A stretch of DNA of 32,000 bases from Thermodesulfobacteriota bacterium. Lineage in GTDB: Bacteria; Desulfobacterota; WTBG01; JAGOGO01. Of this stretch, positions 1 through 27,942 are shown in pieces (positions within the stretch are counted from its first letter, which is position 1; every line of letters starts with the position of its first letter). The translations under genes were made by a program, and so were the position numbers. The notes below the pieces were generated by a model. That model was not told the origin of the DNA, searched no databases, and saw only the letters and a program-made list of their open reading frames with translations. The DNA lies in NCBI GenBank assembly GCA_026625185.1, contig CP113000.1:2175622-2207621 (forward strand), read 5' to 3'.

Positions 1-244
1 TAATCGGCAAACCAGGCTCAAGTTCTTTTATAATTGCAACGGCTACATCCCAGGCCATGTCTTTCACGTCTACGTCAAAGACCAAAACGGAAATATGTTC
101 TTTTTGAATGGTGCGAATAGATTCTAAGGCTTGGTCGGTTGTATTCGTGATCAACCCATCCTTTCGTAAGATCAAGTAGATTTTTTTCGCTAGTTTTTTG
201 TCAGGCTCAACAATAAGAATTTTTTTTCTTTCCATTCCATCCAT
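1..244 (-). CDS. Response-regulator receiver (REC) domain protein, 5' part only; gene runs off the window start
   Basis: Not in the ORF track because there is no stop inside the window. My translation of the reverse complement of 1-244 is MDGMERKKILIVEPDKKLAKKIYLILRKDGLITNTTDQALESIRTIQKEHISVLVFDVDVKDMAWDVAVAIIKELEPGLPI. The layout is CheY-like: acidic pair in ILIVEPD and a candidate phospho-acceptor Asp in VLVFDVDV. Start is the ATG at 244 or 235. Confidence 0.55.
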   Translation of the reverse strand, partial: MDGMERKKILIVEPDKKLAKKIYLILRKDGLITNTTDQALESIRTIQKEHISVLVFDVDVKDMAWDVAVAIIKELEPGLPI

Positions 245-1923: not shown

Positions 1924-3837
1924 TTATTCCTGAAATTTTTCGAACGCAATGGGAAGGATTATTTTAAAGGTAGCTCCTTTTCCTGATGCGCTCTCAACCT
2001 CGATGGTGCCGTGGTGACTTTGAACAATCCCATATGAAGTGCTCAGACCAAGGCCCGTTCCTTTTCCAACATCCTTGGTAGTAAAGAAGGGTTCAAAAAT
2101 TTTCGATTGTATTGCCGGAGGTATTCCCAGGCCGGTATCTTTAAAAAAAATAGCAATTGAAGATCCATCCGGATTTACTTCGGTCGTGATGGTTAAGGTG
2201 CCGCCTTTTTCACTCATTGCTTCGGCAGCATTGACCATCATGTTCATAAGTACCTGTTTTATTGGATTGGGATCACCTTGAATGAGCGGAAGGTCAGGAC
2301 TTAGCTCTCTTAACGTCTTGATATTATGGAAAAGAGCCTGTTTTTCTAAGAAAAACAAAACATCATCAATCAGCTTGTTAATATCTACCGGTTCAAATTT
2401 TGATTCGGTCTGGCGAGCAAATTCTAATAAATTTTTTACAATATCTTTACAACGGGTTCCCTCCTCAACAATCCTTTTTAGATCCTGAACCCGGGGATCG
2501 TTTTGATCTGCAAAATCTTCCATAAGCAGACTGGCATAGATCAGAATGCCTCCCAAGGGGTTATTGATTTCATGGGCTACTCCGGCCGCCAAACTTCCCA
2601 GTGAAGCCATTTTTTCCGTTTGGATAAGGCGCATTTGGGTATCTTGCAATTCTTTTTCCATTTTAAGTTTCTCACGCAAATCAGTAAACAAGCCGAGGGA
2701 GGCAAGCTCCTTATCTCCCTCATAAATAATAGACGCCGAACAGCTCACCGGTACCTCAATCCCGTCTTTTCCATAAAAGTTGATTCGAAAATTTTCTAAT
2801 TTGCCACGACCGCCGTACTCATCGCTTCGCAATTTTCGCATAATATCTTTCGCTACCTCTATCGGGTAAAACTTCGTAATATGGAAATTTTCGATAACTT
2901 CTTCGGCGTTATAACCGGTTAATTTTTCGGCGGCCTTATTAAAAAAGATAACGTTTCCCCTGGTGTCGGCAGCGACAATACACTCTACCGAATTTTCGAG
3001 AAGATTGGAAAAAAAACGATTTTTTTCCTCCAGTTCCCGTTCCATTCTGATTCGATCAGAAATGTCAATGGTCAGACCCTGATAGCCGACCACCTTATCG
3101 TTTTCGTCCTTAATCACGTGAGAGGTTATTAAAACCGGAATATTTTCTCCGTTCTTTTTTTTCCAGATCACCTCATAATTTTTCACCATTCCGTCTCGCT
3201 CGATAATTTCCTGGTACTTTTCTCGGTCTTCGGGATTTAGATATAAATTCTTAATAATATCCATTTTGAGAAATTCTTCTTTACTGGTATAATTTAAAAT
3301 TTTCAACAAAGCAGCATTGCAATCGACAAATCTTCCATCCTTGCTACTAACAAAAGTTCCTTGATCGACGCGGTTAAATAGCTCATTGTATCTTTTCCCG
3401 GACTCTTGTAATTCTCTTATGAGATGCCACTCGACTGATATCTCGCGAAGATAAATCAAATATTTTTTCTCCCGTGAATGAGTTAAACAACTCGCTAAAC
3501 ACATTTCGGTAACGACGTTCGTAGAATTCGCGGTAATAAGCTCTAGGCCAGGGTATATCCTGGTAGAACAGGTATCGATTTTTTCTTGGAGAGTCTGAAA
3601 GATTTTTTGATTTTTCTCGTCCAAAAAGTCGGTAAAATTTTTACCTAATAGGGTGTTAACTTCGTAACCCATAAAATAGGCAATCATACGGTTAGCAAAC
3701 TGAATGCGGTTATAATCATCTAAAACCAAAATGCCGATATTGGCAATTTCCGCAATGGTTTTGAAAAGATTCGAAGCTTCTAAAAGATCAAGTTCAGAAA
3801 TTTTTGGAGATTTATGGGGGTTGGACATATGTTTCAT
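1924..3837 (-). CDS. Multi-PAS sensor histidine kinase (HisKA + HATPase_c)
   Basis: 637-aa ORF ending 5 nt upstream of the regulator at 1918. H-box AGVAHEINNPLGG, with the His codon CAT at 2572-2574 on the minus strand. N-box MNMMVNAAEAM, G-boxes KDTGLGI and GTGLGLS. PAS-like repeats lie upstream. Confidence 0.9.
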   Translation of the reverse strand: MKHMSNPHKSPKISELDLLEASNLFKTIAEIANIGILVLDDYNRIQFANRMIAYFMGYEVNTLLGKNFTDFLDEKNQKIFQTLQEKIDTCSTRIYPGLELITANSTNVVTEMCLASCLTHSREKKYLIYLREISVEWHLIRELQESGKRYNELFNRVDQGTFVSSKDGRFVDCNAALLKILNYTSKEEFLKMDIIKNLYLNPEDREKYQEIIERDGMVKNYEVIWKKKNGENIPVLITSHVIKDENDKVVGYQGLTIDISDRIRMERELEEKNRFFSNLLENSVECIVAADTRGNVIFFNKAAEKLTGYNAEEVIENFHITKFYPIEVAKDIMRKLRSDEYGGRGKLENFRINFYGKDGIEVPVSCSASIIYEGDKELASLGLFTDLREKLKMEKELQDTQMRLIQTEKMASLGSLAAGVAHEINNPLGGILIYASLLMEDFADQNDPRVQDLKRIVEEGTRCKDIVKNLLEFARQTESKFEPVDINKLIDDVLFFLEKQALFHNIKTLRELSPDLPLIQGDPNPIKQVLMNMMVNAAEAMSEKGGTLTITTEVNPDGSSIAIFFKDTGLGIPPAIQSKIFEPFFTTKDVGKGTGLGLSTSYGIVQSHHGTIEVESASGKGATFKIILPIAFEKFQE

Positions 3838-4680: not shown

Positions 4681-5770
4681 TTCAAAGTGCACCATTTGAG
4701 AAAAGCATGCGACATGACAGGAATTCTGGTATGTTGAGAAGAACGACCAACTCGCAACCAGAAAGAGCCTGCCATGTCATATATACATTTAACAGAAAAC
4801 GAACGATATGTCATCAGCCATTTAAATGTGGCTGGATTTAGTAAACGAGAAATTGCCCGCCGGATAAACCGAGATCACAGCACGGTCAGTCGTGAACTTA
4901 AACGCAACGGGCCGGAATATGATTGCACTGTTTATTGGTATGACTGGACGCATCCGGTAGCTCTAAAACGACGGCATCAGGCCAGGCATTATCGTCGGGA
5001 GGGCAACGAGCGCCTTGTTGATTATGTAAAAACAAAACTGAATCTGCAATGGTCTCCAGAGGAGATAAGCGATTATATGCGGATTAATTATCCTGATGAT
5101 GAGACGATGCGAGTGTGCCATGAGACAATTTATCGCTGGATTTATAAGGATGCGAAGGTTAATGGCAAGCTTTATCTAAACCTGCGGCGGGGGAGGAAAA
5201 GGCGACGGCGCCAGAAACGGTATGGTTTGGGAAGGCGGTTTCTTGCCGGGCGCAAGAGAATTGCTCAACGACCTGAAATCGTGGAAGGGAGAAAACGATT
5301 TGGAGACTGGGAGGGCGATACGATCGAAGGCAAAAAAAGCAGTGGCTATATCGCGACGTTAGTCGAACGCAAGAGCCGCTACCTTTTGGCTGGCAAGCTG
5401 GAAAATAAGAAAGCTACGACATTGACAGATAAAAGCACTCAAATTTTCAGGCGCATTCCTGGAATAATGCGGCAAACTTTAACGGTAGATAATGGAACAG
5501 AGTTTGCCCAATTTAAAGAACTTGAGGAAAAAACCAAACTCAGTATTTACTTTGCCGATCCTTATGCTGCATGGCAGCGAGGAGCCAATGAAAACACCAA
5601 CGGATTACTGCGGCAGTATTTTCCGAAAGGAACTTACATGAGAAAAATTACCGAACGTGATATTTCTCGTGCTGTTAAAAGGCTTAATAATCGGCCAAGA
5701 AAATCTCTCAACTACCGGACACCCTATGAAGTGTTCTGGAATGCAGCTCGTGGTGCACTTGCAATTTGAA
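4681..5770 (+). mobile_element. IS30-family insertion sequence (about 1.09 kb)
   Basis: Single transposase ORF flanked by imperfect terminal inverted repeats: TTCAAAGTGCACCA at 4681-4694, and TGGTGCACTTGCAATTTGAA at 5751-5770 (reverse complement TTCAAATTGCAAGTGCACCA). The right repeat overlaps the stop codon, as is common in IS30 elements. Exact ends and target duplication are not resolved. Confidence 0.7.
4774..5769 (+). CDS. IS30-family DDE transposase
   Basis: 331 aa. N-terminal HTH HLTENERYVISHLNVAGFSKREIARRINRDHSTVSRELKRN. Catalytic region GDWEGDT ... LTVDNGTEF ... WQRGANENTNGLLRQYFPKG, which is a typical IS30 DD(E) signature. Confidence 0.93.
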   Translation: MSYIHLTENERYVISHLNVAGFSKREIARRINRDHSTVSRELKRNGPEYDCTVYWYDWTHPVALKRRHQARHYRREGNERLVDYVKTKLNLQWSPEEISDYMRINYPDDETMRVCHETIYRWIYKDAKVNGKLYLNLRRGRKRRRRQKRYGLGRRFLAGRKRIAQRPEIVEGRKRFGDWEGDTIEGKKSSGYIATLVERKSRYLLAGKLENKKATTLTDKSTQIFRRIPGIMRQTLTVDNGTEFAQFKELEEKTKLSIYFADPYAAWQRGANENTNGLLRQYFPKGTYMRKITERDISRAVKRLNNRPRKSLNYRTPYEVFWNAARGALAI

Positions 5771-5854
5771 TTCACCGCCCGTGCAAACTAAAATCACTTA
5801 ATCACCAAAAAACTGTTCTCTTCTTGGTTGTTAAGAAAATATAATCACTTTCGA

Positions 5855-7219
5855 TTACAGAGTAATTTTGTATCGCTTGATCTTAGCGATGAGTGACACT
5901 CTGGAGAGGCCGAGGATTTTGGATGCCATGGTGCGGTTTCCACCGGAGTGTTTAAGTATACGCTCGATGTGCTCTTTTTCTACTTGGACCATAGATTTGC
6001 ATTGGGTATCAACCAGAGAGTATTTCGCCTTTAACGTTGCTTCCAGGAAATATTGCGGCAGTGATCTTCTGGTCAATTCTTTGCCGGTTTCAAGAAGGAC
6101 TGCACTGTTAATGATATTTTCCAACTCTCGGACATTTCCGGGATAGTGATATCGCTGGAGCAATGTCAAAACATCTTCTGAAATGGTATTGATTTTTTTG
6201 TTGTGGGTAGCGGCATATTTTTTCAGAAAGTATTGTGCCAGGAAAACAATATCGCCTTCCCTTTTTCGAAGGGGTTCAACAAAAACCGAGGAAACATTGA
6301 GCCGGTAAAAAAGATCGGTTCGAAAATTTCCCTGCTGAATTTCTTCCTGCAAATCTTTGTTGGTGGCTGTAATAAGTCTTACATCCACCCGGCGGCTTTT
6401 CGTAGAACCGACCGGGAAAAATTCACCCTCCTGTAAAACGCGAAGCAACTTTACTTGAACGGAAAGGGAAAGATCTCCGATTTCATCCAGAAAAAGAGTA
6501 CCATGATCCGCTTTTTCCAAAATACCCGTTTTATCAGAAACCGCGCCGGTAAACGCCCCTTTGGTATGCCCGAAAAATTCAGAAGCAAAGAGCTCTGAGG
6601 CCAGAATGCTGGCATTGATAGCAACAAAAAGTTTATCTTTGCGCTTTGAAAGTTTATGAATCGCACGGGCAATAAGCTCTTTACCGGTGCCGGATTCTCC
6701 CCAAATAAGCACCGGGTTGTCGGTTGGTGATATTTTTTCAATATATTTTAATACTTTTTGCATTTGGGGAGAGGAGTTAATAATTTTGACAAATGGGTCG
6801 TCCTCTTCTGCTTCTTCAATATGGTTTCTTAGCTCTTCAACTTTCAACTTGAGGGTTCGTCGCTCAAGGGTTCGATCAATAGAGATAAGGAGTTTAGCCC
6901 GATCAAGGGGTTTGGTCAGATAATCATACGCCCCGAGTTTGATTGCTTTTACGGCAAGTTCAATATCTTCCACTCCGGAGAGAATAAGAATTTCCGGCGC
7001 ATCTGGTCTTTCTGATAGATAATGCAAAATATCTAATCCGGTAACTTCGGGCATATCCATGTCAAGTAAAATCAGCTCCGGCTGAAATTCTAAAATAGTT
7101 TCGAAAGCCTTTTTGCTCTCGCTCAGGCATTGCACCTCGAATTTACCCGCTTGCATCAAAAGGACTTCTAAATAATTGAGAATCGCCTGGTCATCGTCTA
7201 TGATTAATATTTTATGCAC
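5855..7219 (-). CDS. Sigma-54-dependent response regulator (NtrC class), paralog of 554-1918
   Basis: 454 aa, the same length as the other activator. REC motifs ILIIDDD, LLDMDMPE and KPL. GESGTGKE, canonical GAFTGA, LFLDEIGDL, RLITATN and FRTDLFYRLN. C-terminal HTH NRTMASKILGLSRVSLIAKIKRY. Confidence 0.92.
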   Translation of the reverse strand: MHKILIIDDDQAILNYLEVLLMQAGKFEVQCLSESKKAFETILEFQPELILLDMDMPEVTGLDILHYLSERPDAPEILILSGVEDIELAVKAIKLGAYDYLTKPLDRAKLLISIDRTLERRTLKLKVEELRNHIEEAEEDDPFVKIINSSPQMQKVLKYIEKISPTDNPVLIWGESGTGKELIARAIHKLSKRKDKLFVAINASILASELFASEFFGHTKGAFTGAVSDKTGILEKADHGTLFLDEIGDLSLSVQVKLLRVLQEGEFFPVGSTKSRRVDVRLITATNKDLQEEIQQGNFRTDLFYRLNVSSVFVEPLRKREGDIVFLAQYFLKKYAATHNKKINTISEDVLTLLQRYHYPGNVRELENIINSAVLLETGKELTRRSLPQYFLEATLKAKYSLVDTQCKSMVQVEKEHIERILKHSGGNRTMASKILGLSRVSLIAKIKRYKITL

Positions 7220-19312: not shown

Positions 19313-19641
19313 GTTATGGCGGGGTTCAACCTGGTTCAACGATGGGCCGGGATTGCCTTTGGAAAGCATGGCATAAGAATTGTCTTAACCTTGGGATTCA
19401 TGGGGTTGGCCTTTACGGTGGAACTAAGCACAGTTCTGCAACAGACCTTCGGAAATACTTCTCCCCGGAGCATATAAAGCGGGCAACAATGCACTTCACA
19501 AACAAGGCGTTCGAAAGATATTTTCAGGTTCAAGCCGAGGATATTTGGACCATATACAATCAGTCAAAGGGTGGGAGTGAAAAGGGAGTGAAAAACATAT
19601 CCCTTAAAAAGGATAAAATTATTAAAATTACTAAGAAATAA
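19313..19641 (+). pseudogene. 3' remnant of a tyrosine-recombinase (phage-type integrase) gene, copy 1
   Basis: MGRDCLWKAWHKNCLNLGIHGVGLYGGTKHSSATDLRKYFSPEHIKRATMHFTNKAFERYFQV corresponds to the C-terminal catalytic segment (HxxR-box region, H/Y region ...ERY). The N-terminal two-thirds, including Arg-I, are missing. It ends 1 nt before the tRNA-Ser 3' repeat. Confidence 0.7.
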
Positions 19642-19642
19642 T

Positions 19643-19669
19643 AGCGGAGAGGGTGGGATTCGAACCCAC
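19643..19669 (-). repeat. 27-bp exact direct repeat of the tRNA-Ser(CGA) 3' end (att-type island boundary)
   Basis: AGCGGAGAGGGTGGGATTCGAACCCAC at 19643-19669 is identical to 27851-27877, which covers the T-arm, acceptor 3' strand, discriminator and 2 further nt of the intact tRNA. Identity stops at both edges. Confidence 0.9.
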
Positions 19670-20937: not shown

Positions 20938-21234
20938 TTACAGGTTAAGAAGTAACTTTTTCCCCCCCCTCTTTTCCTCAGGGATGATGGTCATTAGGTC
21001 ATTCGGGGTGCACTCGAAATAAAGACAAAGCTTCTCAATAATCTCAGTGTTAGGCTTGTAGTTACCTTTGCTATGAGCAATCTTAGAAAGTGTTACCCTT
21101 GAAAGTCCCGTCTTTTCCGCTATCTCAAAAAGCAAAATAGAACGCCTTTCCCTAAATTCCTTATCCTCAAGTAAACGTCTGAAGTGAAACTGAATCATGC
21201 GGTTATCTTTATACATATTAAAGATTTTTGTCAA
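20938..21234 (-). CDS. XRE/Cro-C1-family helix-turn-helix transcriptional regulator
   Basis: 98 aa. LLFEIAEKTGLSRVTLSKIAHSKGNYKPNTEIIEKLCLYFECTPNDLMTI is a typical HTH_XRE (YozG-like) pattern. It is divergent from the recombinase gene. Confidence 0.8.
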   Translation of the reverse strand: MTKIFNMYKDNRMIQFHFRRLLEDKEFRERRSILLFEIAEKTGLSRVTLSKIAHSKGNYKPNTEIIEKLCLYFECTPNDLMTIIPEEKRGGKKLLLNL

Positions 21235-21411
21235 TAGTTAAAAAAAATTCACCTATGGCAATAATTCTTTCTTTTTTTATTTGACAAACCTTTTTTATTG
21301 GGGTAATTATTTATTAACTGAAGTAAAAAATTTTTAACCTTAGTTTAGTTAAATGAAAACCCCACGTAATCAAAGAGAATATAAAATTTCCCTCCTTCTG
21401 GATGGTTTAAA

Positions 21412-21461
21412 GGCCTGTCTCAAGTTGACGTGTGGTTATCTTGAGCGGGCCTTTTCTTTTT
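21412..21461 (+). terminator. Intrinsic-terminator-like hairpin plus T-tract 18 nt upstream of the recombinase start (possible attenuator)
   Basis: GGCC-TGT-CTCAAG (21412-21424), a 15-nt loop, CTTGAG-CG-GGCC (21440-21451), then TTTTCTTTTT. Confidence 0.45.
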
Positions 21462-21478
21462 GAAGAAAGGGGGCCAGC

Positions 21479-22069
21479 ATGAAAGGCGCGCGTCATTTAT
21501 CAAGGGAAGAAATTCAAAGCCTCGCGCAATCGTTTTACGGGGAATATGAGGTTAGAAACCGGAGTCTTTTTCTTTTGGGGTTAAACATCGGGACACGGAT
21601 CAGCGAGCTACTGGCCTTGAATGTTGGTGACGTTTGGCAGTTTGGGAAGCCGGTTGCAATCCTTGAGCTAAAGAAAGCAATCACTAAGGGGAAGAAAACG
21701 AGACAGATTCCCTTGAATGAGCAGGCACAAAAAGTCATTACCGAGCTTATCGGGTGGAAAGAATCACAAGGTGAAGACCTCTATCCTAACGCTCCGCTTT
21801 TTACCTCAAGGAAAGGTAACAGAAGGTTATCCCGCTTTCAGGTTTACAGGATATTGAAGGACTCATTTCAATCAAGCGAATGTTCGGGAAGGGTTAGCAC
21901 TCACAGCTTGAGGAAGTCCTTCGCTAAGGCGCTGCTAATTTCCGGGAATAACTTAAGAGCGATTCAGGTTCTCTTAGGTCATACTTCCCTGGCAACCAAA
22001 GAAAAGTATTTGGCGGTTTCTCCTGATGAACTGAGTCAAGCGGTAAATTCTTTGAGCTTCGCAGCTTAA
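21479..22069 (+). CDS. Small (196-aa) tyrosine recombinase consisting of the catalytic domain only (FimB/FimE-size)
   Basis: The full catalytic set is visible: Arg-I in GTRISELLAL, Lys in KKTRQIPL, HxxR in STHSLRKSF, His in LLGHTSL and Tyr in KEKYLAV. No N-terminal core-binding domain. SD AAGGGGG lies upstream. Confidence 0.85.
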   Translation: MKGARHLSREEIQSLAQSFYGEYEVRNRSLFLLGLNIGTRISELLALNVGDVWQFGKPVAILELKKAITKGKKTRQIPLNEQAQKVITELIGWKESQGEDLYPNAPLFTSRKGNRRLSRFQVYRILKDSFQSSECSGRVSTHSLRKSFAKALLISGNNLRAIQVLLGHTSLATKEKYLAVSPDELSQAVNSLSFAA

Positions 22070-22353: not shown

Positions 22354-22695
22354 GTGCGGAGAAAGAAGGTTTTTTCCCGGCATGGCAAAGGATGGGGTGG
22401 AATAACCCCTGGCTCGAAGATGGGGCGAGACTGTTTATGGAAGGCATGGCACAAGGCTTGTCTTAATCTCGGTATTAAGGGTGTTGACCTCTATGGTGGA
22501 ACTAAACACAGTTCAACTACTGATCTGCGGAAATACTTCTCACCAGAGCAAATCAAAAGGGCAACCATGCACCAGACTAACAAGGCTTTCGAAAGATATT
22601 TCCAAGTTCCGATTGATGATATTCGGGAAATATACCAAAACACGGCTGGCAAAGAATTGGCAAAGGATGAGGAACGTAATGTAATAGGAGAATAA
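22354..22695 (+). pseudogene. 3' remnant of a tyrosine-recombinase (integrase) gene, copy 2 (paralog of 19313-19641)
   Basis: MGRDCLWKAWHKACLNLGIKGVDLYGGTKHSSTTDLRKYFSPEQIKRATMHQTNKAFERYFQV. By my count 60 of 72 aligned residues are identical to copy 1. No Arg-I region is present, and the upstream ORF (22200-22466) is in another frame and not integrase-like. Confidence 0.7.
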
Positions 22696-22731
22696 CGGGA
22701 TTAGGCGGGATATGCCGGTAAATGCCGGGAT
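22696..22731 (+). repeat. Four direct CGGGAT-like repeats phased at 10 bp (iteron / arm-site-like)
   Basis: CGGGAT at 22696, CGGGAT at 22706, CCGGTA at 22715 and CCGGGAT at 22725, immediately after the integrase-remnant stop codon. Confidence 0.6.
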
Positions 22732-22753
22732 AATAAGAAGTTAGATGAAATTT

Positions 22754-22840
22754 GGAGAAATTTTTGTCGCCACACTGTTACCCCGCCAACCCCTTTTTTC
22801 TGTAATGAAATCGGCGACAATTTTTAAGAGAAATTTTTTG
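22754..22840. repeat. Inverted repeat TTGTCGCC / GGCGACAA with A/T-rich GAGAAATTTTT flanks
   Basis: TTGTCGCC at 22764-22771 and GGCGACAA at 22813-22820, 41 bp apart. Flanks are GGAGAAATTTT on the left and TTTTTAAGAGAAATTTTTT on the right. The interval contains CACTGTTAC. Confidence 0.55.
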
Positions 22841-22886
22841 CACGTAGTTTGAGATAATACTCATAAAATAAATTTTAAACGGAGTG

Positions 22887-22946
22887 TGTAAACTGCGGGC
22901 GTTCAGCGTGACAGGTCGCTCGTCAGACCACAGCCGTTGGTTATGC
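22887..22946 (-). repeat. GC-rich imperfect hairpin after the last cassette ORF; possible heterologous attC-like site (weak)
   Basis: The minus strand reads GCATAAC-CAACGGCTGTGGTCTGACGAGCG-ACCTGTCA-CGCTGAACGCCCGCA-GTTTACA (60 nt). The ends loosely resemble RYYYAAC and GTTRRRY, but pairing is poor and it is unrelated in sequence to the other five repeats. Confidence 0.3.
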
Positions 22947-22960
22947 AATACTGATAGTTT

Positions 22961-23305
22961 TTAAAATTTTACAACTATCCATCCGACGATTAACACGATG
23001 ATCCAACCACATGAAATGGCAAAAAGGAAATTTTTCCATCTTTCTCCGAAGTAATTTTTTGTGGCCCTAACTACCCATGTCCAATTAAAACAGATATGAA
23101 AGACCAGGAGAATTAGAAGTAAAAGTGACAAATAGAGATGGATATCGCCCCACTGATGTCGCTGTAGCCCAAGAAAATACTTCTGAAATCCATACCCTCT
23201 TCCCCTCGGAATTACAAATCCTAAGAAAAGTCCTATAACCGAAAGGGAACACATATCAACAAAAAGAGCGACATTAACCACGAACTTCAACGTATTCTTT
23301 TTCAA
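22961..23305 (-). CDS. DUF4405-like small integral membrane protein (cassette 6)
   Basis: 114 aa with 3-4 TM segments. The pattern ...GLQRHQWGDIHLYLSLLLLILLVFHICFNWTWV matches my memory of DUF4405 (conserved H..W.diH ... lH...nW.W). TTG start with SD GAGGGAA. Confidence 0.6.
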   Translation of the reverse strand: MKKNTLKFVVNVALFVDMCSLSVIGLFLGFVIPRGRGYGFQKYFLGLQRHQWGDIHLYLSLLLLILLVFHICFNWTWVVRATKNYFGERWKNFLFAISCGWIIVLIVGWIVVKF

Positions 23306-23322
23306 GTCATTCCCTCTTCATC

Positions 23323-23436
23323 GCATATCAGTGTTTATATTGATCCGTAAAAAAATCTAAATACGTTACCTAATTTATATAAAAATCGGCATAAGACCCC
23401 GTTGTTAAGAATTTTGTAATTTTAGGGATGTCTCTC
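23323..23436 (-). repeat. attC-like cassette-junction repeat, family member d (R'-like end degenerate)
   Basis: The minus strand reads GAGACATCCCTAAAATTACAAAATTC-TTAACAACGGGGTCTTATGCC...TTTACGGATCAATATAAACACT-GATATGC. About 85% of positions match member c by eye. The stop codon of the 78-aa ORF lies inside the conserved left arm. Confidence 0.65.
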
Positions 23437-23658
23437 ACTTTTTCCCCTGGTTCGAAGGATGACGCCAGTCTGCTCAATCTGGTACTCGCCCTTCTTCAGC
23501 CGATTTATGGTCAATCCGTCTGAAGTCCGAAGCTCCTTTAGCCCTTCAACGACGGTTTTTGGATTCTCGCCAGTTTCAATGAAGTCGGTGTAGACGTAGA
23601 CGGTGTACCGACGGCCGTCGTCACCAACCGCTAAGAATCTGCCAGTTTGTCTCTTCAT
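23422..23658 (-). CDS. Hypothetical small protein, 78 aa (cassette 5)
   Basis: ATG preceded by AAAGGAAAA. No recognisable motif. The ORF runs into the downstream repeat arm. Confidence 0.5.
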   Translation of the reverse strand: MKRQTGRFLAVGDDGRRYTVYVYTDFIETGENPKTVVEGLKELRTSDGLTINRLKKGEYQIEQTGVILRTRGKSERHP

Positions 23659-23675
23659 TAATTTTCCTTTAAACC

Positions 23676-23792
23676 GCCAAACAGTGGTTATATTGATCCG
23701 TAAAAAAACCTAAATACGTTACTCAATCTATAAAAAAAATCGGCGGCATAAGGCGCCGTTGTTAAGAATTTTAGGATTTTAAGGACGTCCGG
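23676..23792 (-). repeat. attC-like cassette-junction repeat, family member c
   Basis: The minus strand reads GGACGTCCTTAAAATCCTAAAATTC-TTAACAACGGCGCCTTATGCCGCCGATTTTTTTTATAGATTGAGTAACGTATTTAGGTTTTTTTACGGATCAATATAACCACT-GTTTGGC. Confidence 0.65.
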
Positions 23793-23823
23793 TTTTCTAC
23801 CCATAAGCGCTTAATAGGCCGAC

Positions 23824-24375
23824 CTACTTGAAGCTTTGAAAACTTAAGCCGAGGTCACGCACCAAAATTTTGCCATCTCGGAGGTCTTGTTTCGGGATTT
23901 TAATTTCGATGCGCACAGCACTATTGACGGTAACAACTGCGCGGCCCTCAAGCACATGGGCATCCTTGGGCATCGGAAAAAATTCGATCTGGACAAATTC
24001 GGCATTGCGCAGATCCAAGACCGGTCGGCCAACTGCAGGATCGGTCGCATCCATTTCGAATACACCCCGAAACAGTGCCCGCTCGTTACCCTGTTGTTTA
24101 CCGAGACACTGAGCCGCGCTGGTAGTTAACAGCGCAGAGGCGCCTTTGCCGAACGCAAGGTAACCGCCGCGATCCATGTAGAAGTTGTCGTACGGAGTAT
24201 CGGTCTTGATGAACACCTCGACAGTTGCTGAAGCACTGCGGACGGGTGCTCGAAAAGGCGCAACGGCCTCGGCGAGGTTGCCGAAGTACCAAGTTCCCAC
24301 ACTCCCAGCCAAGACGAGCGCCGTCCCTAAGAACACGACCACATACGAAGCAGTACGCCAGAACAGAGGATCCAT
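23824..24375 (-). CDS. Hypothetical membrane-anchored protein (cassette 4), visibly GC-rich relative to its neighbours
   Basis: The ORF is open to 24393. The ATG at 24375 has the better SD (GAAAGGGAAAAAC). There is an N-terminal TM helix (ASYVVVFLGTALVLAGSVGTWYF) followed by a beta-rich region. No family recognised. Confidence 0.55.
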   Translation of the reverse strand: MDPLFWRTASYVVVFLGTALVLAGSVGTWYFGNLAEAVAPFRAPVRSASATVEVFIKTDTPYDNFYMDRGGYLAFGKGASALLTTSAAQCLGKQQGNERALFRGVFEMDATDPAVGRPVLDLRNAEFVQIEFFPMPKDAHVLEGRAVVTVNSAVRIEIKIPKQDLRDGKILVRDLGLSFQSFK

Positions 24376-24405
24376 GTTTTTCCCTTTCAACATGTGTAAT
24401 GATCG

Positions 24406-24477
24406 GCCTAACAGTGTTTATATTGAGCCGTATAAGACCCCGTTGTTAAGAATTTTATAATTTTAGGGGATGTCCCC
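24406..24477 (-). repeat. attC-like cassette-junction repeat, family member b (short form, central part absent)
   Basis: The minus strand reads GGGGACATCCCCTAAAATTATAAAATTC-TTAACAACGGGGTCTTATACGGCTCAATATAAACACT-GTTAGGC. R'-like GTTAGGC fits GTTRRRY exactly. TCTTAAC pairs with it at 5 Watson-Crick positions plus 1 G-T. GTCTTATA pairs with TATAAAC leaving one bulged C. Confidence 0.65.
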
Positions 24478-24509
24478 TTCCCCCCCAATTTAATCATCAA
24501 TATCTTTCG

Positions 24510-25769
24510 TTAATGAATAAAAGAAAATTGTTTTTCGTAGAACTCTCTCGCAATAGCCTGTTTTTCTGCTACATAGGCAAGAACTTCGTTATAATTCTCA
24601 AAAAGAAGATTAACTACTCTGGTATCTAAAAGACGACGGTCTGAAAATTGTTTCATAATTTGAATAAGCTCCTCTTTGGACATACCTTTTCTATACGGTC
24701 GGTCCTCAGCCAGTGCGGTAAATATATCTGCGACCATCATTATTCGTGCTCCGGTAGTTAACTCGGCTGCTGTGCAATGAAAGGGATATCCGGACCCGTC
24801 AAGTTTTTCATGGTGGTAGGCAGCCCATTCTGCAACCTGCTTAAGTCCCCCAATGGTATTAATCACATGATAAGTATAGTACGGGTGTGATTTCATAACA
24901 GCCATCTCTTCTTTTGTAAGTTTTTCGGGTTTTTTCAGAATGCTGTTGGGTATTGCCAACTTGCCTATATCATGCAAATTGCCTGTAACCTCCATAAGCC
25001 CTACTTCTGCGTCCGTAAATCCAAAAATTCTTGCCAACATAGACGCTGCCGCAGCAACACCTGAAGAATGAGTTGAAGTAAAACGGGAGCGGAAATCAAT
25101 TATATTTCGAAACAGCTCAGATATTATAGCAATATTCGAAAAATCAATTTCTCTTTTTGAGAAAGGGCCTTCATTAAGTAAAATTGAATACAGCCGTGGG
25201 GAAACCAGATCCAGCCAAAATTCTTCACTATTAGATATTTGGGTAAAAAGATCCACAACCTGAGGATGTAGTGAAGAGCCGGACAAGGATTTTATTTTTG
25301 AAACAATATCTTCGTGTTGATGAAGAATGTACTGATCCCGCTTTATTGCACGTTCGAGATAATCGGCAAGAAATAACAACTGTGAAGCTAAAACAATAGG
25401 AGTTTCAATTGATTCTTCCCAGTATTGCCACTCTTTGTGGTGGAAACTGATGATTTTTGACAAGTCCCTTAGCCAAGGTATGTTATTGAGTAGCAGTTCA
25501 CCCCGAATGCAATGATCTTCGAGATTTTCGATTTCGAAATTCCTAAGGGAGATTTTTTCTTCCAATGACAAAGCTCCGATATCATGAAGAAGTGCTGCTA
25601 TAAAAATTTTTTCCAATCTTTCATGTGATATTTTTGCAGCTTTTCCCATTTCCCACACAACAAATGCTGTCCTTTGCTGATGTTGGATTATTGACGGACT
25701 GGCCAAATCCATAGCATCAGAGAGTGAAAGAACAAGATTACCTAAATTCACTGCGGTTTGACGTTGCAT
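24510..25769 (-). CDS. HD-GYP-domain phosphohydrolase with an additional N-terminal degenerate HD domain (cassette 3)
   Basis: 419 aa. The C-terminal domain has NLHDIGKLAIP ... YHHEKLDGSGYPF ... MMVADIFTALAEDRPYRKG, the HD-GYP signature. The N-terminal half has LLHDIGAL ... ISFHHKEW without GYP. Confidence 0.85.
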   Translation of the reverse strand: MQRQTAVNLGNLVLSLSDAMDLASPSIIQHQQRTAFVVWEMGKAAKISHERLEKIFIAALLHDIGALSLEEKISLRNFEIENLEDHCIRGELLLNNIPWLRDLSKIISFHHKEWQYWEESIETPIVLASQLLFLADYLERAIKRDQYILHQHEDIVSKIKSLSGSSLHPQVVDLFTQISNSEEFWLDLVSPRLYSILLNEGPFSKREIDFSNIAIISELFRNIIDFRSRFTSTHSSGVAAAASMLARIFGFTDAEVGLMEVTGNLHDIGKLAIPNSILKKPEKLTKEEMAVMKSHPYYTYHVINTIGGLKQVAEWAAYHHEKLDGSGYPFHCTAAELTTGARIMMVADIFTALAEDRPYRKGMSKEELIQIMKQFSDRRLLDTRVVNLLFENYNEVLAYVAEKQAIAREFYEKQFSFIH

Positions 25770-25794
25770 GTCATTCTCCCGAAAAAATTCTTCC

Positions 25795-25907
25795 AGCTAA
25801 CGGTGTTTATATTGATCTATATAAAAACCTAAATGCTTTACTCAATCTTTATAAAAATCAGTATAAGGCGCGGTTGTTAAGAATTTTATAATTTTAGGGA
25901 CGCCCCC
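25795..25907 (-). repeat. attC-like cassette-junction repeat, family member a
   Basis: The minus strand reads GGGGGCGTCCCTAAAATTATAAAATTC-TTAACAACCGCGCCTTATACTGATTTTTATAAAGATTGAGTAAAGCATTTAGGTTTTTATATAGATCAATATAAACACC-GTTAGCT. The inner arms TGATTTTTATAAAG and TTTATATAGATCA are largely self-complementary. Confidence 0.65.
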
Positions 25908-26003
25908 TGACCGCCCCGGAAGCGGAAGCTGGAGGCAGTCAGCTCCAGGACGAGGTTAACTGGTCCGCCGGACATGGCACGCCGTTGCCCCAAAAGGGGA
26001 CAC

Positions 26004-26957
26004 TCACGACGGATTAATAATGCTCATGGACGCTGTATTCCATTTCGTGTTCATTCCGGTGCCGGCTGAGGAGACGTTCGACTCCTCAACCTCAAGCCAT
26101 AGACTGGCGAACACCGGCGGTGGCCCTGCGGGTAGTTCAATGAATGTGTCATCCAATTGAAGACCGACGTTTGTCAATAATACGTGCAATGGCAGTATTG
26201 TCTTGCGAACATGGTCCCGTATGTGTGAATATTCCGTCGGCGTCAGATATTTTAGGTAATTGAGTCTTGTGATCTGGAGTAGCTCAACAGCGATCTTACA
26301 AGGAACCCATACATCGGCAACCGTGATCTTTAACCCTGGAGGGCTGAGATCCATACGCGTGCCTTCCGGATGCTCAGAAGACAACAGCCGCCGCAGACCA
26401 TCATTGATATGCTGTTCGAACTCTATTGTCGTTCGGCCACCATCCGTCGTGAGAGGGGTAGACGTCTTGAGTTGTATAAAAATCTCGCGGCCCCGATTTT
26501 TTTCGACGAGTACCTCGTTTGTTATTATATCCAGCACTGCAACAAAATTATTCATCTTTCGCGTGTAGATCAAAGGAATCTGGACCTCGGCTTTCCACCG
26601 ATCAGATCGGATATCCTCAATGGTAAGAAGCTCGATACCCTTAGCCAAAGCGTACCTGTGATTCGTTTTGGCGAACCCGGAAGTGCAAAGCAGGAATCCT
26701 TTTGCCGCCCTTACATCCTGCATGACCGCTGAAAATTCGCCTAATACATTGATGTCTGCACGAGATGCCCAATCCCTACATTGGACAACGTAGAGAAGCT
26801 CCGCATCTCCGATTTGCAAGCGCACCGAGACGTCGATCTCACGTTCGAGTCCGCTCTCGTGACCCCAAATCCTGTCGTTCTTAGTCACGCCTGCATCGAC
26901 GAAGAAGCCCTTCAACTTCTCGTAAACAAACTGTTCGTATTCCGCACCTGCCTTCAT
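26004..26957 (-). CDS. Mrr-like restriction-endonuclease (PD-(D/E)xK) N-terminal domain protein with an unknown ~190-aa C-terminal region (cassette 2), GC-rich
   Basis: 317 aa. GAEYEQFVYEKLKGFF...ESGLEREIDVSV...LLYVVQCRDW...INVLGEFSAVMQDVRAAKGFLLCTSGFAKTNHRYALAKGIELLTIEDI follows the Mrr_cat pattern (E/D...D, then xQCK-like). The C-terminal half has no motif I recognise. Confidence 0.7.
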   Translation of the reverse strand: MKAGAEYEQFVYEKLKGFFVDAGVTKNDRIWGHESGLEREIDVSVRLQIGDAELLYVVQCRDWASRADINVLGEFSAVMQDVRAAKGFLLCTSGFAKTNHRYALAKGIELLTIEDIRSDRWKAEVQIPLIYTRKMNNFVAVLDIITNEVLVEKNRGREIFIQLKTSTPLTTDGGRTTIEFEQHINDGLRRLLSSEHPEGTRMDLSPPGLKITVADVWVPCKIAVELLQITRLNYLKYLTPTEYSHIRDHVRKTILPLHVLLTNVGLQLDDTFIELPAGPPPVFASLWLEVEESNVSSAGTGMNTKWNTASMSIINPS

Positions 26958-26991
26958 GCAAAGTCCTTTACCTATGCGTCATGTACTGAAC

Positions 26992-27131
26992 CAGCCAACA
27001 ATGTTCATATTGATTTGTATAACGCCCTTGATGTAAGCCCCTTTTGCAAAGCAAAAAAAGGCCCGTTACCTTTTTTGCTGGCAATCAGGCCAATTTTTTA
27101 AACGGAATTATTGACCCTCATCCTTGTTAAT
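26992..27131 (-). repeat. attC-like cassette-junction repeat, divergent family member e (contains a strong internal hairpin)
   Basis: The minus-strand right end AAATCAATATGAACATTGTTGGCTGG matches member a (AGATCAATATAAACACCGTTAGCTGG) at 21 of 26 positions. The left end AAAGAATTAACAAGG resembles AAAATTCTTAACAACG. Confidence 0.5.
27049..27078 (-). terminator. Stem-loop AGCAAAAAAAGG / CCTTTTTTGCT, possible terminator after the CI-like gene
   Basis: 11-12-bp stem with a 7-nt loop (27061-27067). The U-rich stretch is provided by the stem itself. It lies inside repeat e. Confidence 0.35.
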
Positions 27132-27162
27132 TCTTTAAATAACTAACTATAAATTAAATAAA

Positions 27163-27753
27163 TCACCCGGCCTTCTTTTCGGTAGAGCGGCCAGTCTCCT
27201 CTGCTGGAGTATCGCCTTGAATATTCCCACCCTCCCTTTGTACCCCCGCCTCTAATTCAGATATTCTTTTTTCCAAGGAATTAATTTTATTATTCAATTC
27301 CTGGTTTTTTTCGATGGCCCGCCCAAAACTGTCCAGGACGGCAACAACTGTTTGGATAAACGTCGGATCGCGGCTGTCAAATATCTTATCTAATTGCCTT
27401 ATTGTCTGTCTATACGGGGCATCCACTCCATAGTTTGCCGACTGATCACCCGTTATTTTAGCCTTCAGCTCCACCGGCTGGCGTTGCTCCGGCCCGCAAA
27501 CCTCAGGAAATTTTTCGCGCGCGCCTTCAAAAGGCTCACCAGAGCCGTGTATAAGCCAGGTAGGATTAAAGTCACAATTATTTGCAAGTGCATCAATTAC
27601 ATTTCCTTTAATGTGCCCACCTAAATTTTTTGCGTATTTAGCTAAAGTATCTTTATTTGTCCCCAATTTTTTCGCTAAAACAGGCCAGCTTAGGTTGTAT
27701 TTCCCTTTATAATAATTAATAGTCCAGGCAACTCTCTCATTTAAACTGGTCAT
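27163..27753 (-). CDS. Phage CI-repressor-like HTH protein with a C-terminal coiled-coil (first ORF after the tRNA)
   Basis: 196 aa. LSWPVLAKKLGTNKDTLAKYAKN...NVIDALANNCDFNPTWLIHGSGEPF matches the Phage_CI_repr N-terminal domain pattern (...n.nWLl.G.G). The C-terminus has the heptad-like NQELNNKINSLEKRISELEAG. Confidence 0.7.
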   Translation of the reverse strand: MTSLNERVAWTINYYKGKYNLSWPVLAKKLGTNKDTLAKYAKNLGGHIKGNVIDALANNCDFNPTWLIHGSGEPFEGAREKFPEVCGPEQRQPVELKAKITGDQSANYGVDAPYRQTIRQLDKIFDSRDPTFIQTVVAVLDSFGRAIEKNQELNNKINSLEKRISELEAGVQREGGNIQGDTPAEETGRSTEKKAG

Positions 27754-27852
27754 TTTTTACCTTTTTTTGGTTGTCGGTTCGGTCTTATAACTACCAAAGG
27801 ATTTTGGCCACTTGAAAGAAGCAAACTTATTGAAATTAAAAGATGAAACAAG

Positions 27853-27942
27853 CGGAGAGGGTGGGATTCGAACCCACGTGCCCCGGTTAAGGGACAAGCC
27901 GATTTCGAGTCGGCCCCGTTACAACCACTTCGGTACCTCTCC
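27853..27942 (-). tRNA. tRNA-Ser (anticodon CGA), class II with long variable arm; CCA not encoded
   Basis: The minus strand reads GGAGAGG-TA-CCGAAGTGGTTGTAACGGG-G-CCGACTCGAAATCGG-CTTGTCCCTTAACCGGGGCAC-GTGGGTTCGAATCCCAC-CCTCTCC-G. The anticodon loop is CUCGAAA. Folded by hand. Confidence 0.9.

Follow-up and report, generated by a model that had tools for sequence, protein, structure and literature searches.

What separates, and may move, the small unrelated genes that stand in a row in a 32,000-nt stretch of DNA from a Thermodesulfobacteriota bacterium (this whole stretch is called the window here)? On the minus strand between positions 22961 and 27753, six co-oriented ORFs are parted by four close copies of a repeat and a fifth, divergent one (Table 1). 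The junction repeat is 75-120 bp long and was interpreted in a first-pass annotation, made from the letters alone, as an attC-like palindrome in an integron-type cassette array. Re-location of copies c1-c5 bore out the minus-strand positions given there, and the layout agrees with the proposed order of stop codon, repeat, Shine-Dalgarno sequence and next start codon. The repeat is far more frequent than chance would give: TTCTTAACAAC is matched 5 times with at most one mismatch (0.81 expected), and TCAATATAAACAC 9 times with at most two (1.07 expected), counts reached by none of 100 shuffles. Pfam searches recovered the domains suggested earlier for three ORFs (Mrr_cat, HD/HD_5 and DUF4405) and gave no match for two others. 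The uneven GC content that had been remarked on is also present, with cassettes at 0.37-0.535 against 0.433 for the window, and a copy of the 3' end of the flanking tRNA-Ser gene lies at 19644-19669.

Table 1. Features of the cassette array and its flanks, in window coordinates.
Feature	Position	Strand	Description or evidence
tRNA-Ser(CGA)	27852..27942	-	flanks array head; sequence
Head gene	27163..27753	-	196 aa, HTH-like N-terminus, no Pfam match
c5, head junction element	26992..27131	-	right arm 26993-27027 conserved, left part divergent
Cassette ORF, Mrr_cat-domain nuclease-like	26004..26957	-	317 aa; Pfam PF04471, E 1e-8
c4, long form	25794..25913	-	42-nt insert, between Mrr-like and HD genes; nhmmer
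Cassette ORF, HD/HD_5 domain protein	24510..25769	-	419 aa; Pfam PF13487, E 2e-46
c3, short form	24404..24490	-	75 nt, commonest form in family; nhmmer E 6e-24
Cassette ORF hyp189	23824..24393	-	hypothetical, 189 aa (183 aa from second ATG)
c2, long form	23674..23800	-	upstream of hyp78; nhmmer and alignment
Cassette ORF hyp78	23422..23658	-	78 aa; identical protein on six contigs
c1, long form	23322..23445	-	between hyp78 and DUF4405; nhmmer and alignment
Box AAAATTCTTAAC in c1	23404..23415	-	inferred crossover interval; alignment of hyp78 contigs
Boxes equivalent to that of c1	23761-23772, 24445-24456, 25876-25887	-	
Last array ORF, DUF4405 protein	22961..23305	-	114 aa, TTG start; Pfam PF14358, E 2e-15
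Conserved non-coding array tail	22668..22878	-	blastn and alignment

Outside the array, the other 27 kb of the window hold no family copy by profile search. The absence of the repeat claimed for that region stands, except for one lone left-box-like sequence, TTATATTTTCTTAACAAC, at 5827-5844. The 32 kb examined on two other contigs from this organism gave no copy, and the strict repeat pattern occurs on only 3 contigs per MAG. At least 120 pattern matches were obtained; 64 copies are two-armed, 52 of them in the short form. A family profile (nhmmer) collects 104 elements in 60 metagenome and MAG loci. Elements mostly share the strand of the ORF upstream (57 same, 11 opposite) and of the ORF downstream (63 same, 12 opposite), and the units between repeats usually hold one ORF and mostly span 0.2-1.4 kb (median about 0.6 kb). 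What these units carry is accessory or resembles defence functions (Mrr, HNH, an RM pair, YhcG, DUF2971). A generic REP/BIME or MITE was considered and rejected, with five copies lying within 4.2 kb, an orientation that follows the genes, and clustering instead of dispersal; on this point the earlier opinion was the same.

Among arrays of the family the head module and the tail are conserved, and contigs from other samples terminate within repeats. The head gene is constant across samples and has few homologues. Its junction element, c5, which was aligned against L114 and other array heads, matches the family profile with its right half alone (27027-26993, E 6e-5, nhmmer), and its left part forms a terminator-like hairpin followed by seven U (RNA fold -19.8 kcal/mol, z -1.9). 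In c1 the right box is degenerate (GATATGC) and the left arm contains the hyp78 stop codon. The tail, with three CGGGAT motifs and an 8-bp inverted repeat, TTGTCGCC..GGCGACAA, recurs after different last cassettes in L117, L037 and L038. The GC-rich hairpin that had been placed 3' of the last ORF folds no better than shuffled sequence (z 0.31).

Gain, loss and reassortment of cassettes are directly visible. The identical hyp78 protein is found on six contigs, where two upstream and two downstream neighbours occur in every one of the four possible pairings: hyp189-hyp78-DUF4405 (the window, L155 and L157), 73aa-hyp78-DUF4405 (L156), 73aa-hyp78-120aa (L154) and hyp189-hyp78-120aa (L158). A cassette has been gained or lost between L059, which reads C19-C5, and L083, which reads C19-X-C5 with an X of 753 nt. 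The units, which look promoterless, reassort at the repeats between near-identical strains, as expected from the cassette-array reading; neither a circular cassette nor an empty site was observed among these sequences.

The position of the break was read from the same alignments. In c1, the sequence up to the box AAAATTCTTAAC is common to four hyp78 contigs and everything beyond it differs. These contigs agree as far as ATTACAAAATTCTTAAC, sharing even a rare C variant that lies 12 nt from the box end, and part at the very next base (AACGGGGTC versus CCCGGCGCC). The junction had been predicted at G/TT of the R' box, but the break maps between AAAATTCTTAA and the C that follows, in what had been named the R'' box (TTCTTAAC). 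It follows that the palindromic body moves together with the ORF downstream of it: at c1, the upstream ORF hyp78 keeps just the AT-rich left arm, and the body differs according to which ORF comes next. Likewise, four near-identical pairs (L059/L077, L006/L109, L032/L100 and L053/L059) share the whole body, rare variants included, and the downstream gene, and have unrelated upstream genes. Other comparisons are less tidy. The two alleles of the body before hyp78, c2 and a second one that lies behind another upstream gene in L154 and L156, differ within the 42-nt insert; the bodies of a gene found in four contexts ("geneC") differ; between L059 and L083 the difference begins already within the left arm; and L059 and L077 are separated by five transitions in 10 nt between flanks that are 99% identical. 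Since breaks are not uniform across comparisons, gene conversion or homologous exchange between repeats also occurs.

These data bear on one rival explanation, a true integron cassette cluster without a neighboring integrase, or CALIN (Cury et al. 2016, PMC4889954), with atypical attC sites, an IntI encoded elsewhere in the genome, and all ORFs inverted relative to attC polarity. A CALIN is called where at least two attC sites lie within 4 kb and an integron integrase is absent nearby. In gene sense the boxes read TCTTAAC...GTTAGGC and in antisense GCCTAAC...GTTAAGA, off the outer-box pattern RYYYAAC...GTTRRRY only in the first and only in the last base, respectively, so that the required outer boxes are present; AAC/GTT pairing is retained in 42-50 of 52 copies, and GTT of the other box in 42 of 52. 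The observed break, TTAA/C in gene sense, coincides with the GTT box on the opposite strand, where it is the G/TT of GTTAAGA. The inner palindrome is imperfect and has a single bulged base, and the unit sizes, the cargo and the high similarity among junction elements recall sedentary integrons.

Against this, the geometry differs from that of real attC sites. Spacers of the element are 6 and 3 nt (1 and 6 in an alternative register), compared with 5 and 5-6 nt in all 12 reference attCs, which were taken from class 1 integrons and have R'' and L'' 5 nt apart with an extra base at position 4. If polarity is taken from the break, the bulge lies on the arm beside the crossover box, and a further 25 nt outside the boxes are nearly invariant. 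A stable single-strand hairpin of the attC type was likewise rejected: the core of the element has folding energies of -1.1 to -3.1 kcal/mol (z 0 to -1.5) and whole copies give z -1.6 to +1.6, whereas the bottom strands of four real attCs reach -14 to -20.5 kcal/mol (z -2.1 to -5.2). Among the proposed pairs there is no excess of compensatory change, with 83% of cells paired, covariation measures reached by 398-447 of 500 shuffles, and a single pair changed on both sides; the repeat alignment contains no mutual-information signal. Moreover, in real aac(6')-Ib cassettes the attC body is constant and stays with the upstream ORF, and the sequence after G/TT varies, an arrangement that is reversed here. 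Systematic inversion of ORFs is, in addition, not known for integrons.

A covariance-model search had been put forward as a check on the attC assignment. A home-made model (R1), built from the 12 real attCs with their variable terminal structure trimmed, scores real attCs at 33-62 bits, two of them from outside the training set, and reported none of the window copies on either strand (E<=10, filters off), a result that for this model speaks provisionally against the assignment. The break, spacers, fold, covariation and home-made model all count against attC identity and against the R''/R' labels. The clustering and the lack of an integrase nearby agree with a CALIN, and the home-made model speaks against its sites being attC. 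As for the enzyme, tblastn with IntI1 across the window and some 130 loci found no adjacent IntI, in line with what had been noted before for the window, save for a match to a nearby 196-aa tyrosine recombinase that scores 57 bits with the integron-integrase model (cut-off 265). This recombinase was rejected as the array enzyme; it belongs to a separate element, of which intact copies exist without repeats. Inside the array no IntI, serine recombinase or transposase was detected. Altogether, a true CALIN is considered unlikely.

It could also be hypothesized that the repeat is a portable promoter or 5' leader, or a REP-like sequence, copied before many genes, with mosaicism produced by homologous recombination or conversion and no dedicated recombinase. 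The element is always followed directly by a start codon, its body goes together with the gene behind it, and no element follows the last ORF. Its sequence is conserved and its structure is not, and conservation of primary sequence without compensation suits a protein-binding or promoter-like double-stranded DNA element and a recombination site equally well. By inspection, ttAACaa-N16-TCAAT resembles an ECF-sigma promoter, with the most variable 6 nt in the spacer; yet no copy matches a sigma-70-type promoter, and the long form would separate the putative -35 and -10 by 42 nt. Most breaks fall exactly at the longest invariant run (25 nt), and the clustered transitions between L059 and L077 point to conversion. 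However, at hyp78 the break lies within 12 identical nt, a length too short for ordinary homologous (RecA-type) recombination, all four neighbor combinations occur among 100%-identical cassettes, and copies are clustered in short arrays of small accessory ORFs, whose head and tail modules are conserved, instead of being spread over the genome. This explanation is likewise considered unlikely.

A third possibility is that the units derive from a single-strand transposon of the IS200/IS605 type (HUH/Y1), carrying passengers and inserting 3' of a TTAAC target, the body hairpin being the left end. Every unit begins right after TTAAC and finishes with TTAAC, all have a single orientation, and a small imperfect bulged hairpin lies a few nt inside the left end. 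The stability of that hairpin is negligible, though, the window has no Y1 transposase, and the ends are unlike by inspection (an AT-rich body on the left, GGGACGTCC on the right). Tandem arrays are not known from the IS200/IS605 family, and this origin appears very improbable.

The locus is most likely part of a lineage-specific, integron-like cassette system with a non-canonical site and a recombinase encoded elsewhere. To the more specific proposal, a short array of mobile gene cassettes bounded by a lineage-specific junction element that acts as a site-specific recombination site, we give about an even chance. In gene sense, a unit would start with C, followed by the imperfect palindromic body AACGGnGyCTTATAC-GGATCAA-TATAAACAyTGTTrGGC, with or without the 42-nt insert; a Shine-Dalgarno sequence and the ORF would come next, then a purine-rich stretch with GGGACGTCC, and finally ATAAAATTATAAAATTCTTAA. 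Exchange may take place in or at the invariant box, between AAAATTCTTAA and C, so that a cassette would bear the body before its ORF and the AT-rich arm behind it, and a circularised cassette would regenerate the full element. The recombinase would be supplied from outside the array, where none is encoded, and could be an integron-type enzyme of divergent sequence or another site-specific recombinase acting in trans. The repeat family with its clustering and orientation, the gain, loss and reassortment of cassettes and the place of the break are seen in the sequences themselves, whereas the enzyme, circular intermediates and any effect of the body on how the downstream ORF is expressed are inferred.

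Sedentary chromosomal integron arrays and CALINs are among the closest known systems. In them, too, small co-oriented units, mostly with a single ORF each and of unrelated accessory function, are separated by a family of similar imperfect palindromes with AAC/GTT-type outer boxes; cassettes are gained, lost and reshuffled at these repeats when close strains are compared, and no integrase adjoins the array. Unlike in integrons and CALINs, the break here falls in the box farther from the next ORF and the palindrome goes with the downstream ORF; spacers and bulge position are non-canonical, the fold is negligible and about 25 extra nt are invariant; the home-made attC model gives no match, and IntI is found in no related locus. 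The pdif (XerC/XerD) modules of Acinetobacter plasmids are likewise discrete gene modules with short recombination sites and a recombinase encoded elsewhere. Their sites are 28-bp XerC-6-XerD sequences in alternating orientation; the present elements differ in being 75-120 bp long, in direct orientation throughout and, by inspection, without dif-like arms. Correia/NEMIS and BOX elements and "mobile promoters" resemble the family in having short and long forms that differ by an internal segment and in being intergenic, near start codons and conserved in primary sequence. They are, however, scattered over whole genomes in either orientation and do not bound reshuffled cassettes, whereas the elements described here are clustered, co-oriented with the genes, and mark junction-precise exchanges.

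The six co-oriented minus-strand ORFs and the repeats between them, as described in the first-pass annotation, were confirmed: copies c1-c4 are closely related, and c5, at the head of the array, is a fifth copy (table). The two conserved arms of the repeat number 5 and 9 in the window, against 0.8 and 1.1 in shuffles, and none of 100 shuffles equalled either count. Neighbouring genes do differ in GC (ORFs 0.37 to 0.535; window 0.433), and the region is tRNA-bounded as proposed, with tRNA-Ser(CGA) (27852-27942) beside the array and its 3' end duplicated at 19644-19669. The 'GC-rich hairpin' reported 3' of the last ORF has a fold no more stable than those of shuffles. Rfam gave nothing at the gathering score in the window and nothing at E<=1 across 22600-27300, tRNA excepted. 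Sigma-70 promoter and terminator scans returned counts at the shuffle expectation, with no promoter-like match within any repeat and just two terminator-like matches there, both weak and both in c2. The ORF for hyp78, a 78-aa hypothetical protein, runs through the purine-rich/GGGACATCCC part of c1 (23422-23445), and its stop codon is the TAA of the conserved ...CCCTAAAATT; the AT-rich arm supplies a TAA in two of three frames.

Features of the array, its surroundings and related loci (window positions unless a locus is named; L-numbers are fetched metagenome or MAG loci)
Feature	Position	Strand	Basis or remark
196-aa tyrosine recombinase, Xer-like	21479-22069		catalytic domain only
DUF4405 ORF	23305-22961	minus	Pfam
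Repeat copy c1	~23322-23445	minus	
hyp78 ORF	23658-23422	minus	Pfam search, no match
Repeat copy c2	23674-23800	minus	
hyp189 ORF	24393-23824	minus	Pfam search, no match
Repeat copy c3	24404-24490	minus	
HD/HD_5 ORF	25769-24510	minus	Pfam
Repeat copy c4	25794-25913	minus	
Mrr_cat ORF	26957-26004	minus	Pfam
Repeat copy c5	26992-27131	minus	right arm alone significant
~80-nt head module	27040-27110; also L005, L007, L036, L059, L114		
Head ORF, HTH-like	27753-27163	minus	Pfam search, no match
Second repeat family	L013 about 3330-3420		
Second repeat family	L015 about 60-190		
Second repeat family	L082 about 4925-5060		

The left-arm pattern matches six sites, spread over two 'uncultured delta proteobacterium' MAGs, and at least 120 metagenome contigs. 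Among the matches listed, both arms are present in 64 copies; 52 of these have the short spacing of c3 (right arm 13-15 nt past the left), about eight carry the 42-nt insert of c1, c2 and c4, and the short copy is the usual form in the family. In gene sense the consensus reads purine-rich stretch, GGGACGTCC-ATAAAATTATAAAATTCTTAACAAC-GGnGyC-TTATACGGATCAATATAAACAyTGTTrGGC, and because copies outside the search-pattern selection are conserved in the same way, this conservation is not an ascertainment artefact. A profile search recovered 104 elements at 60 loci, with units of mostly 0.2-1.4 kb between repeats, and the strand of the element is that of the flanking ORF by 57:11 upstream and 63:12 downstream. 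The repeat had been described as confined to the array, which holds for full copies: none was found in the other 27 kb of the window or in 32 kb of two more contigs of the same organism, so the family is clustered, unlike dispersed REPs. It does not hold for a lone left-box-like sequence, TTATATTTTCTTAACAAC (5827-5844), located just past a 454-aa minus-strand ORF (5855-7219) and about 50 nt from the end of an IS30-family insertion sequence on its downstream side (4774-5776; HTH_38 and rve, 331 aa). Contig L154 ends in a sequence with 100% identity to the end of this insertion sequence (GGTGAATTCAAATTGCAAG...). The 55 nt that L154 shares with window 5722-5776 were rejected as a second array locus, being the end of a multicopy IS30-family element. 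Viral contigs scanned for the repeat gave chance matches only, and a literature search with its sequence returned nothing relevant. A second repeat family, in which three GGGAGTTACGGGACG units precede TACATGAAAATATGAAT...GGGACATTGTCCAATATTGTCAC, sits inside junction elements at three independent loci, as if targeting them.

Cassette movement is seen most directly around hyp78. Six contigs from different samples carry a gene for the identical protein, and all combinations of hyp189 (a 189-aa hypothetical ORF) or a 73-aa ORF upstream with DUF4405 or a 120-aa ORF downstream are found; in L154 it belongs to another array (methyltransferase and specificity subunit, 227 aa, HNH, 73 aa, hyp78, 120 aa). 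Similarly, L083 and L059 have cassettes C19 and C5 in common, with one additional 753-nt unit and one repeat between them in L083. Assemblers break contigs at variable junctions, and several contigs from other samples terminate exactly within repeats. The head-proximal Mrr, HD and hyp189 cassettes are constant across samples, and evidence on whether arrays grow at the head or the tail is in conflict.

In the alignment of junctions 3' of hyp78 (A8), four contigs are identical through ...CCCTAAAATTACAAAATTCTTAAC, a rare left-arm C included, and diverge at the very next base (AACGGGGTC... vs CCCGGCGCC...). On the 5' side (A9), two junction types are unlike up to ...TAAAAT(CC/TA)T and have common sequence from AAAATTCTTAAC on, including the right arm with its rare AACC variant, but differ within the 42-nt insert. 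Four other near-identical pairs have in common the entire body (the imperfect palindromic right part of the repeat), its unique variants (e.g. TTCTA) and the downstream gene, and their upstream genes are unrelated. Together, these comparisons place the exchange either within the box AAAATTCTTAA/C or right at it, where the slash marks the break. On these alignments the cassette unit is the body, then the ORF, then the left arm. Reshuffling at G/TT had been predicted in the first-pass annotation; the swapping itself is borne out (hyp78, L059/L083), but the break lies at AAAATTCTTAA/C, in what was there called R''.

We put at about an even chance that this is a lineage-specific cassette array in which the junction element is a site-specific recombination site, and in which an enzyme whose gene lies outside the array would cut this site within the AAAATTCTTAA/C box. 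Rather unlikely is a portable repeat, carrying a promoter or leader, whose copies are reshuffled through homologous recombination. Two observations speak against homologous recombination on its own, namely the break at hyp78, confined to a 12-nt window, and the reassortment of identical cassettes in all four combinations. The element might additionally act in expression, given that it is conserved at the sequence level and lies just 5' of every start codon. Some comparisons depart from a single break point and indicate that conversion between copies also occurs: bodies next to one gene (geneC) differ among L037, L041, L059 and L077, L059 and L083 are already unlike within the left arm, and the 99%-identical flanks of L059 29-107 and L077 1381-1459 enclose a variable spacer in which 10 nt hold five G:C<->A:T transitions (GGGATTTTATA vs GGGGCCTTGCA), pointing to local hypermutation or gene conversion there. 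A double-stranded core site at which crossover would take place within the 8-bp CGGATCAA spacer is disfavoured, since unique variants left of the spacer (TTCTA, L006/L109; ACAG, L059/L077) go with the downstream gene, and inspection revealed no likeness to dif/Xer-like arms.

The proposed attC identity of the repeats was compared with 12 real attCs from plasmid-borne class 1 integrons. All 12 follow the layout R''-5 nt-L'' (one extra base) ... L'-5/6 nt-R', whereas the spacers of the element are 6 and 3 nt; read in the polarity that the break implies, the element has its bulge in the arm adjoining the crossover box. A covariance model (R1) built from the 12 sites, which is weak for sites with very long central parts, scored real attCs on the source plasmids at 33-62 bits, two non-training sites among them; on the window (filters off, both strands, E<=10) it gave five weak matches, none at repeats. 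As single strands, element cores fold at -1.1 to -3.1 kcal/mol (z 0 to -1.5), compared with -14 to -20.5 kcal/mol (z -2.1 to -5.2) for four real attC bottom strands, and whole copies fold no better than shuffles. The proposed R/L pairs are formable in 83% of cells, and compensatory variation at them was never seen among family copies. Beyond the boxes, a stretch of about 25 nt (ATAAAATTATAAAATTC) hardly varies, which attC function leaves unexplained. No integron integrase was detected by IntI1 tblastn in the window and about 130 loci. A CALIN of an atypical kind, dependent on IntI and with its ORFs inverted, is unlikely; counted in favour of integron-like chemistry is the antisense strand, which reads GCCTAAC...GTTAAGA, with the mapped break at the G/TT of the last box. 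An IS200/IS605-type passenger element is very improbable.

Arrays of the family have conserved ends. The head consists of a terminator-like module, AGGCCAAATTGCC...GGTGATAGGCCTTTTTT, then a right-arm-only or full element; this ~80-nt module (...GGGTCAATGATT...AGGCCAAATTGCC...GGTGATAGGCCTTTTTTG) is a hairpin then a U-run, and it stands before the first element of arrays whose preceding genes are unrelated. The tail (window 22668-22878) recurs in L117, L037 and L038 behind last cassettes that differ, and far-side genes vary. Candidate partners at these ends were rejected. HTH196, the 196-aa head gene, is no general partner: it has only 8 homologues, and its single long context (a Syntrophales MAG) is not an array. 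The 441-aa ORF adjoining the tail in L037 is no integrase but a glycerate-kinase-type housekeeping gene. The 196-aa tyrosine recombinase, found again 1.2 kb from the tail in L117, was rejected as the array enzyme because it heads a separate ~9 kb integrative element, intact copies of which (L133-L135) have neither repeats nor tail sequence.

In the window, a divergent HTH_26 gene and this recombinase (20938-22069) head a deleted copy of the ~9 kb element; an intact paralogue is present on contig JARDUI010000621.1 of the same MAG (GCA_029216075.1, Thermodesulfobacteriota; window on contig JARDUI010000335.1), and the intact relatives encode Adhesin_E, SNase and an NrS1-1-like primase-polymerase. 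Two 228-nt segments (19330-19557 and 22408-22635; 77% identical) code for the C-terminal portions of two ORFs, 99 and 113 aa long, that show tyrosine-recombinase-like motifs. The first is broken by the tRNA-Ser 3' fragment, and L135 has two copies of the segment, either side of the primase-polymerase element. With the tRNA-Ser fragment, these segments look like a putative attachment hot spot with tandem element accretion.

To our knowledge, integrons are the sole well-understood system assembling promoterless gene-cassette arrays, and present integron-site detection relies on the canonical attC fold. At the population level the array is integron-like, with gain, loss and reassortment at repeats, yet its sites violate attC structural rules and no IntI lies nearby. 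If IntI-type enzymes act here, they take far wider sites and cassette orientations than assumed, and attC-model surveys under-count cassettes; if they do not, anaerobic sediment bacteria possess an independent cassette system, the second of its kind. Judging by the cargo, which comprises nucleases, restriction-modification genes and small unknown proteins, the arrays may serve as a reservoir of accessory and defence functions. A more specific proposal, which we advance only tentatively, is a new class of IntI-independent cassette-recombination platform in Thermodesulfobacteriota, with dedicated head and tail modules and a ~75-bp AT-rich, sequence-conserved site that would be cut at AAAATTCTTAA/C, upstream of the ORF, and might also be an expression signal.

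In real integrons, exemplified by aac(6')-Ib on fetched plasmids, the attC body is constant and the sequence past G/TT varies with the next cassette; here the order is reversed, and the body goes with the downstream ORF. The array works like an integron array, yet most tests of attC membership were negative. It is best compared with integron-like cassette arrays and CALINs, as a variant of them, an independent non-IntI cassette system being the less probable description.
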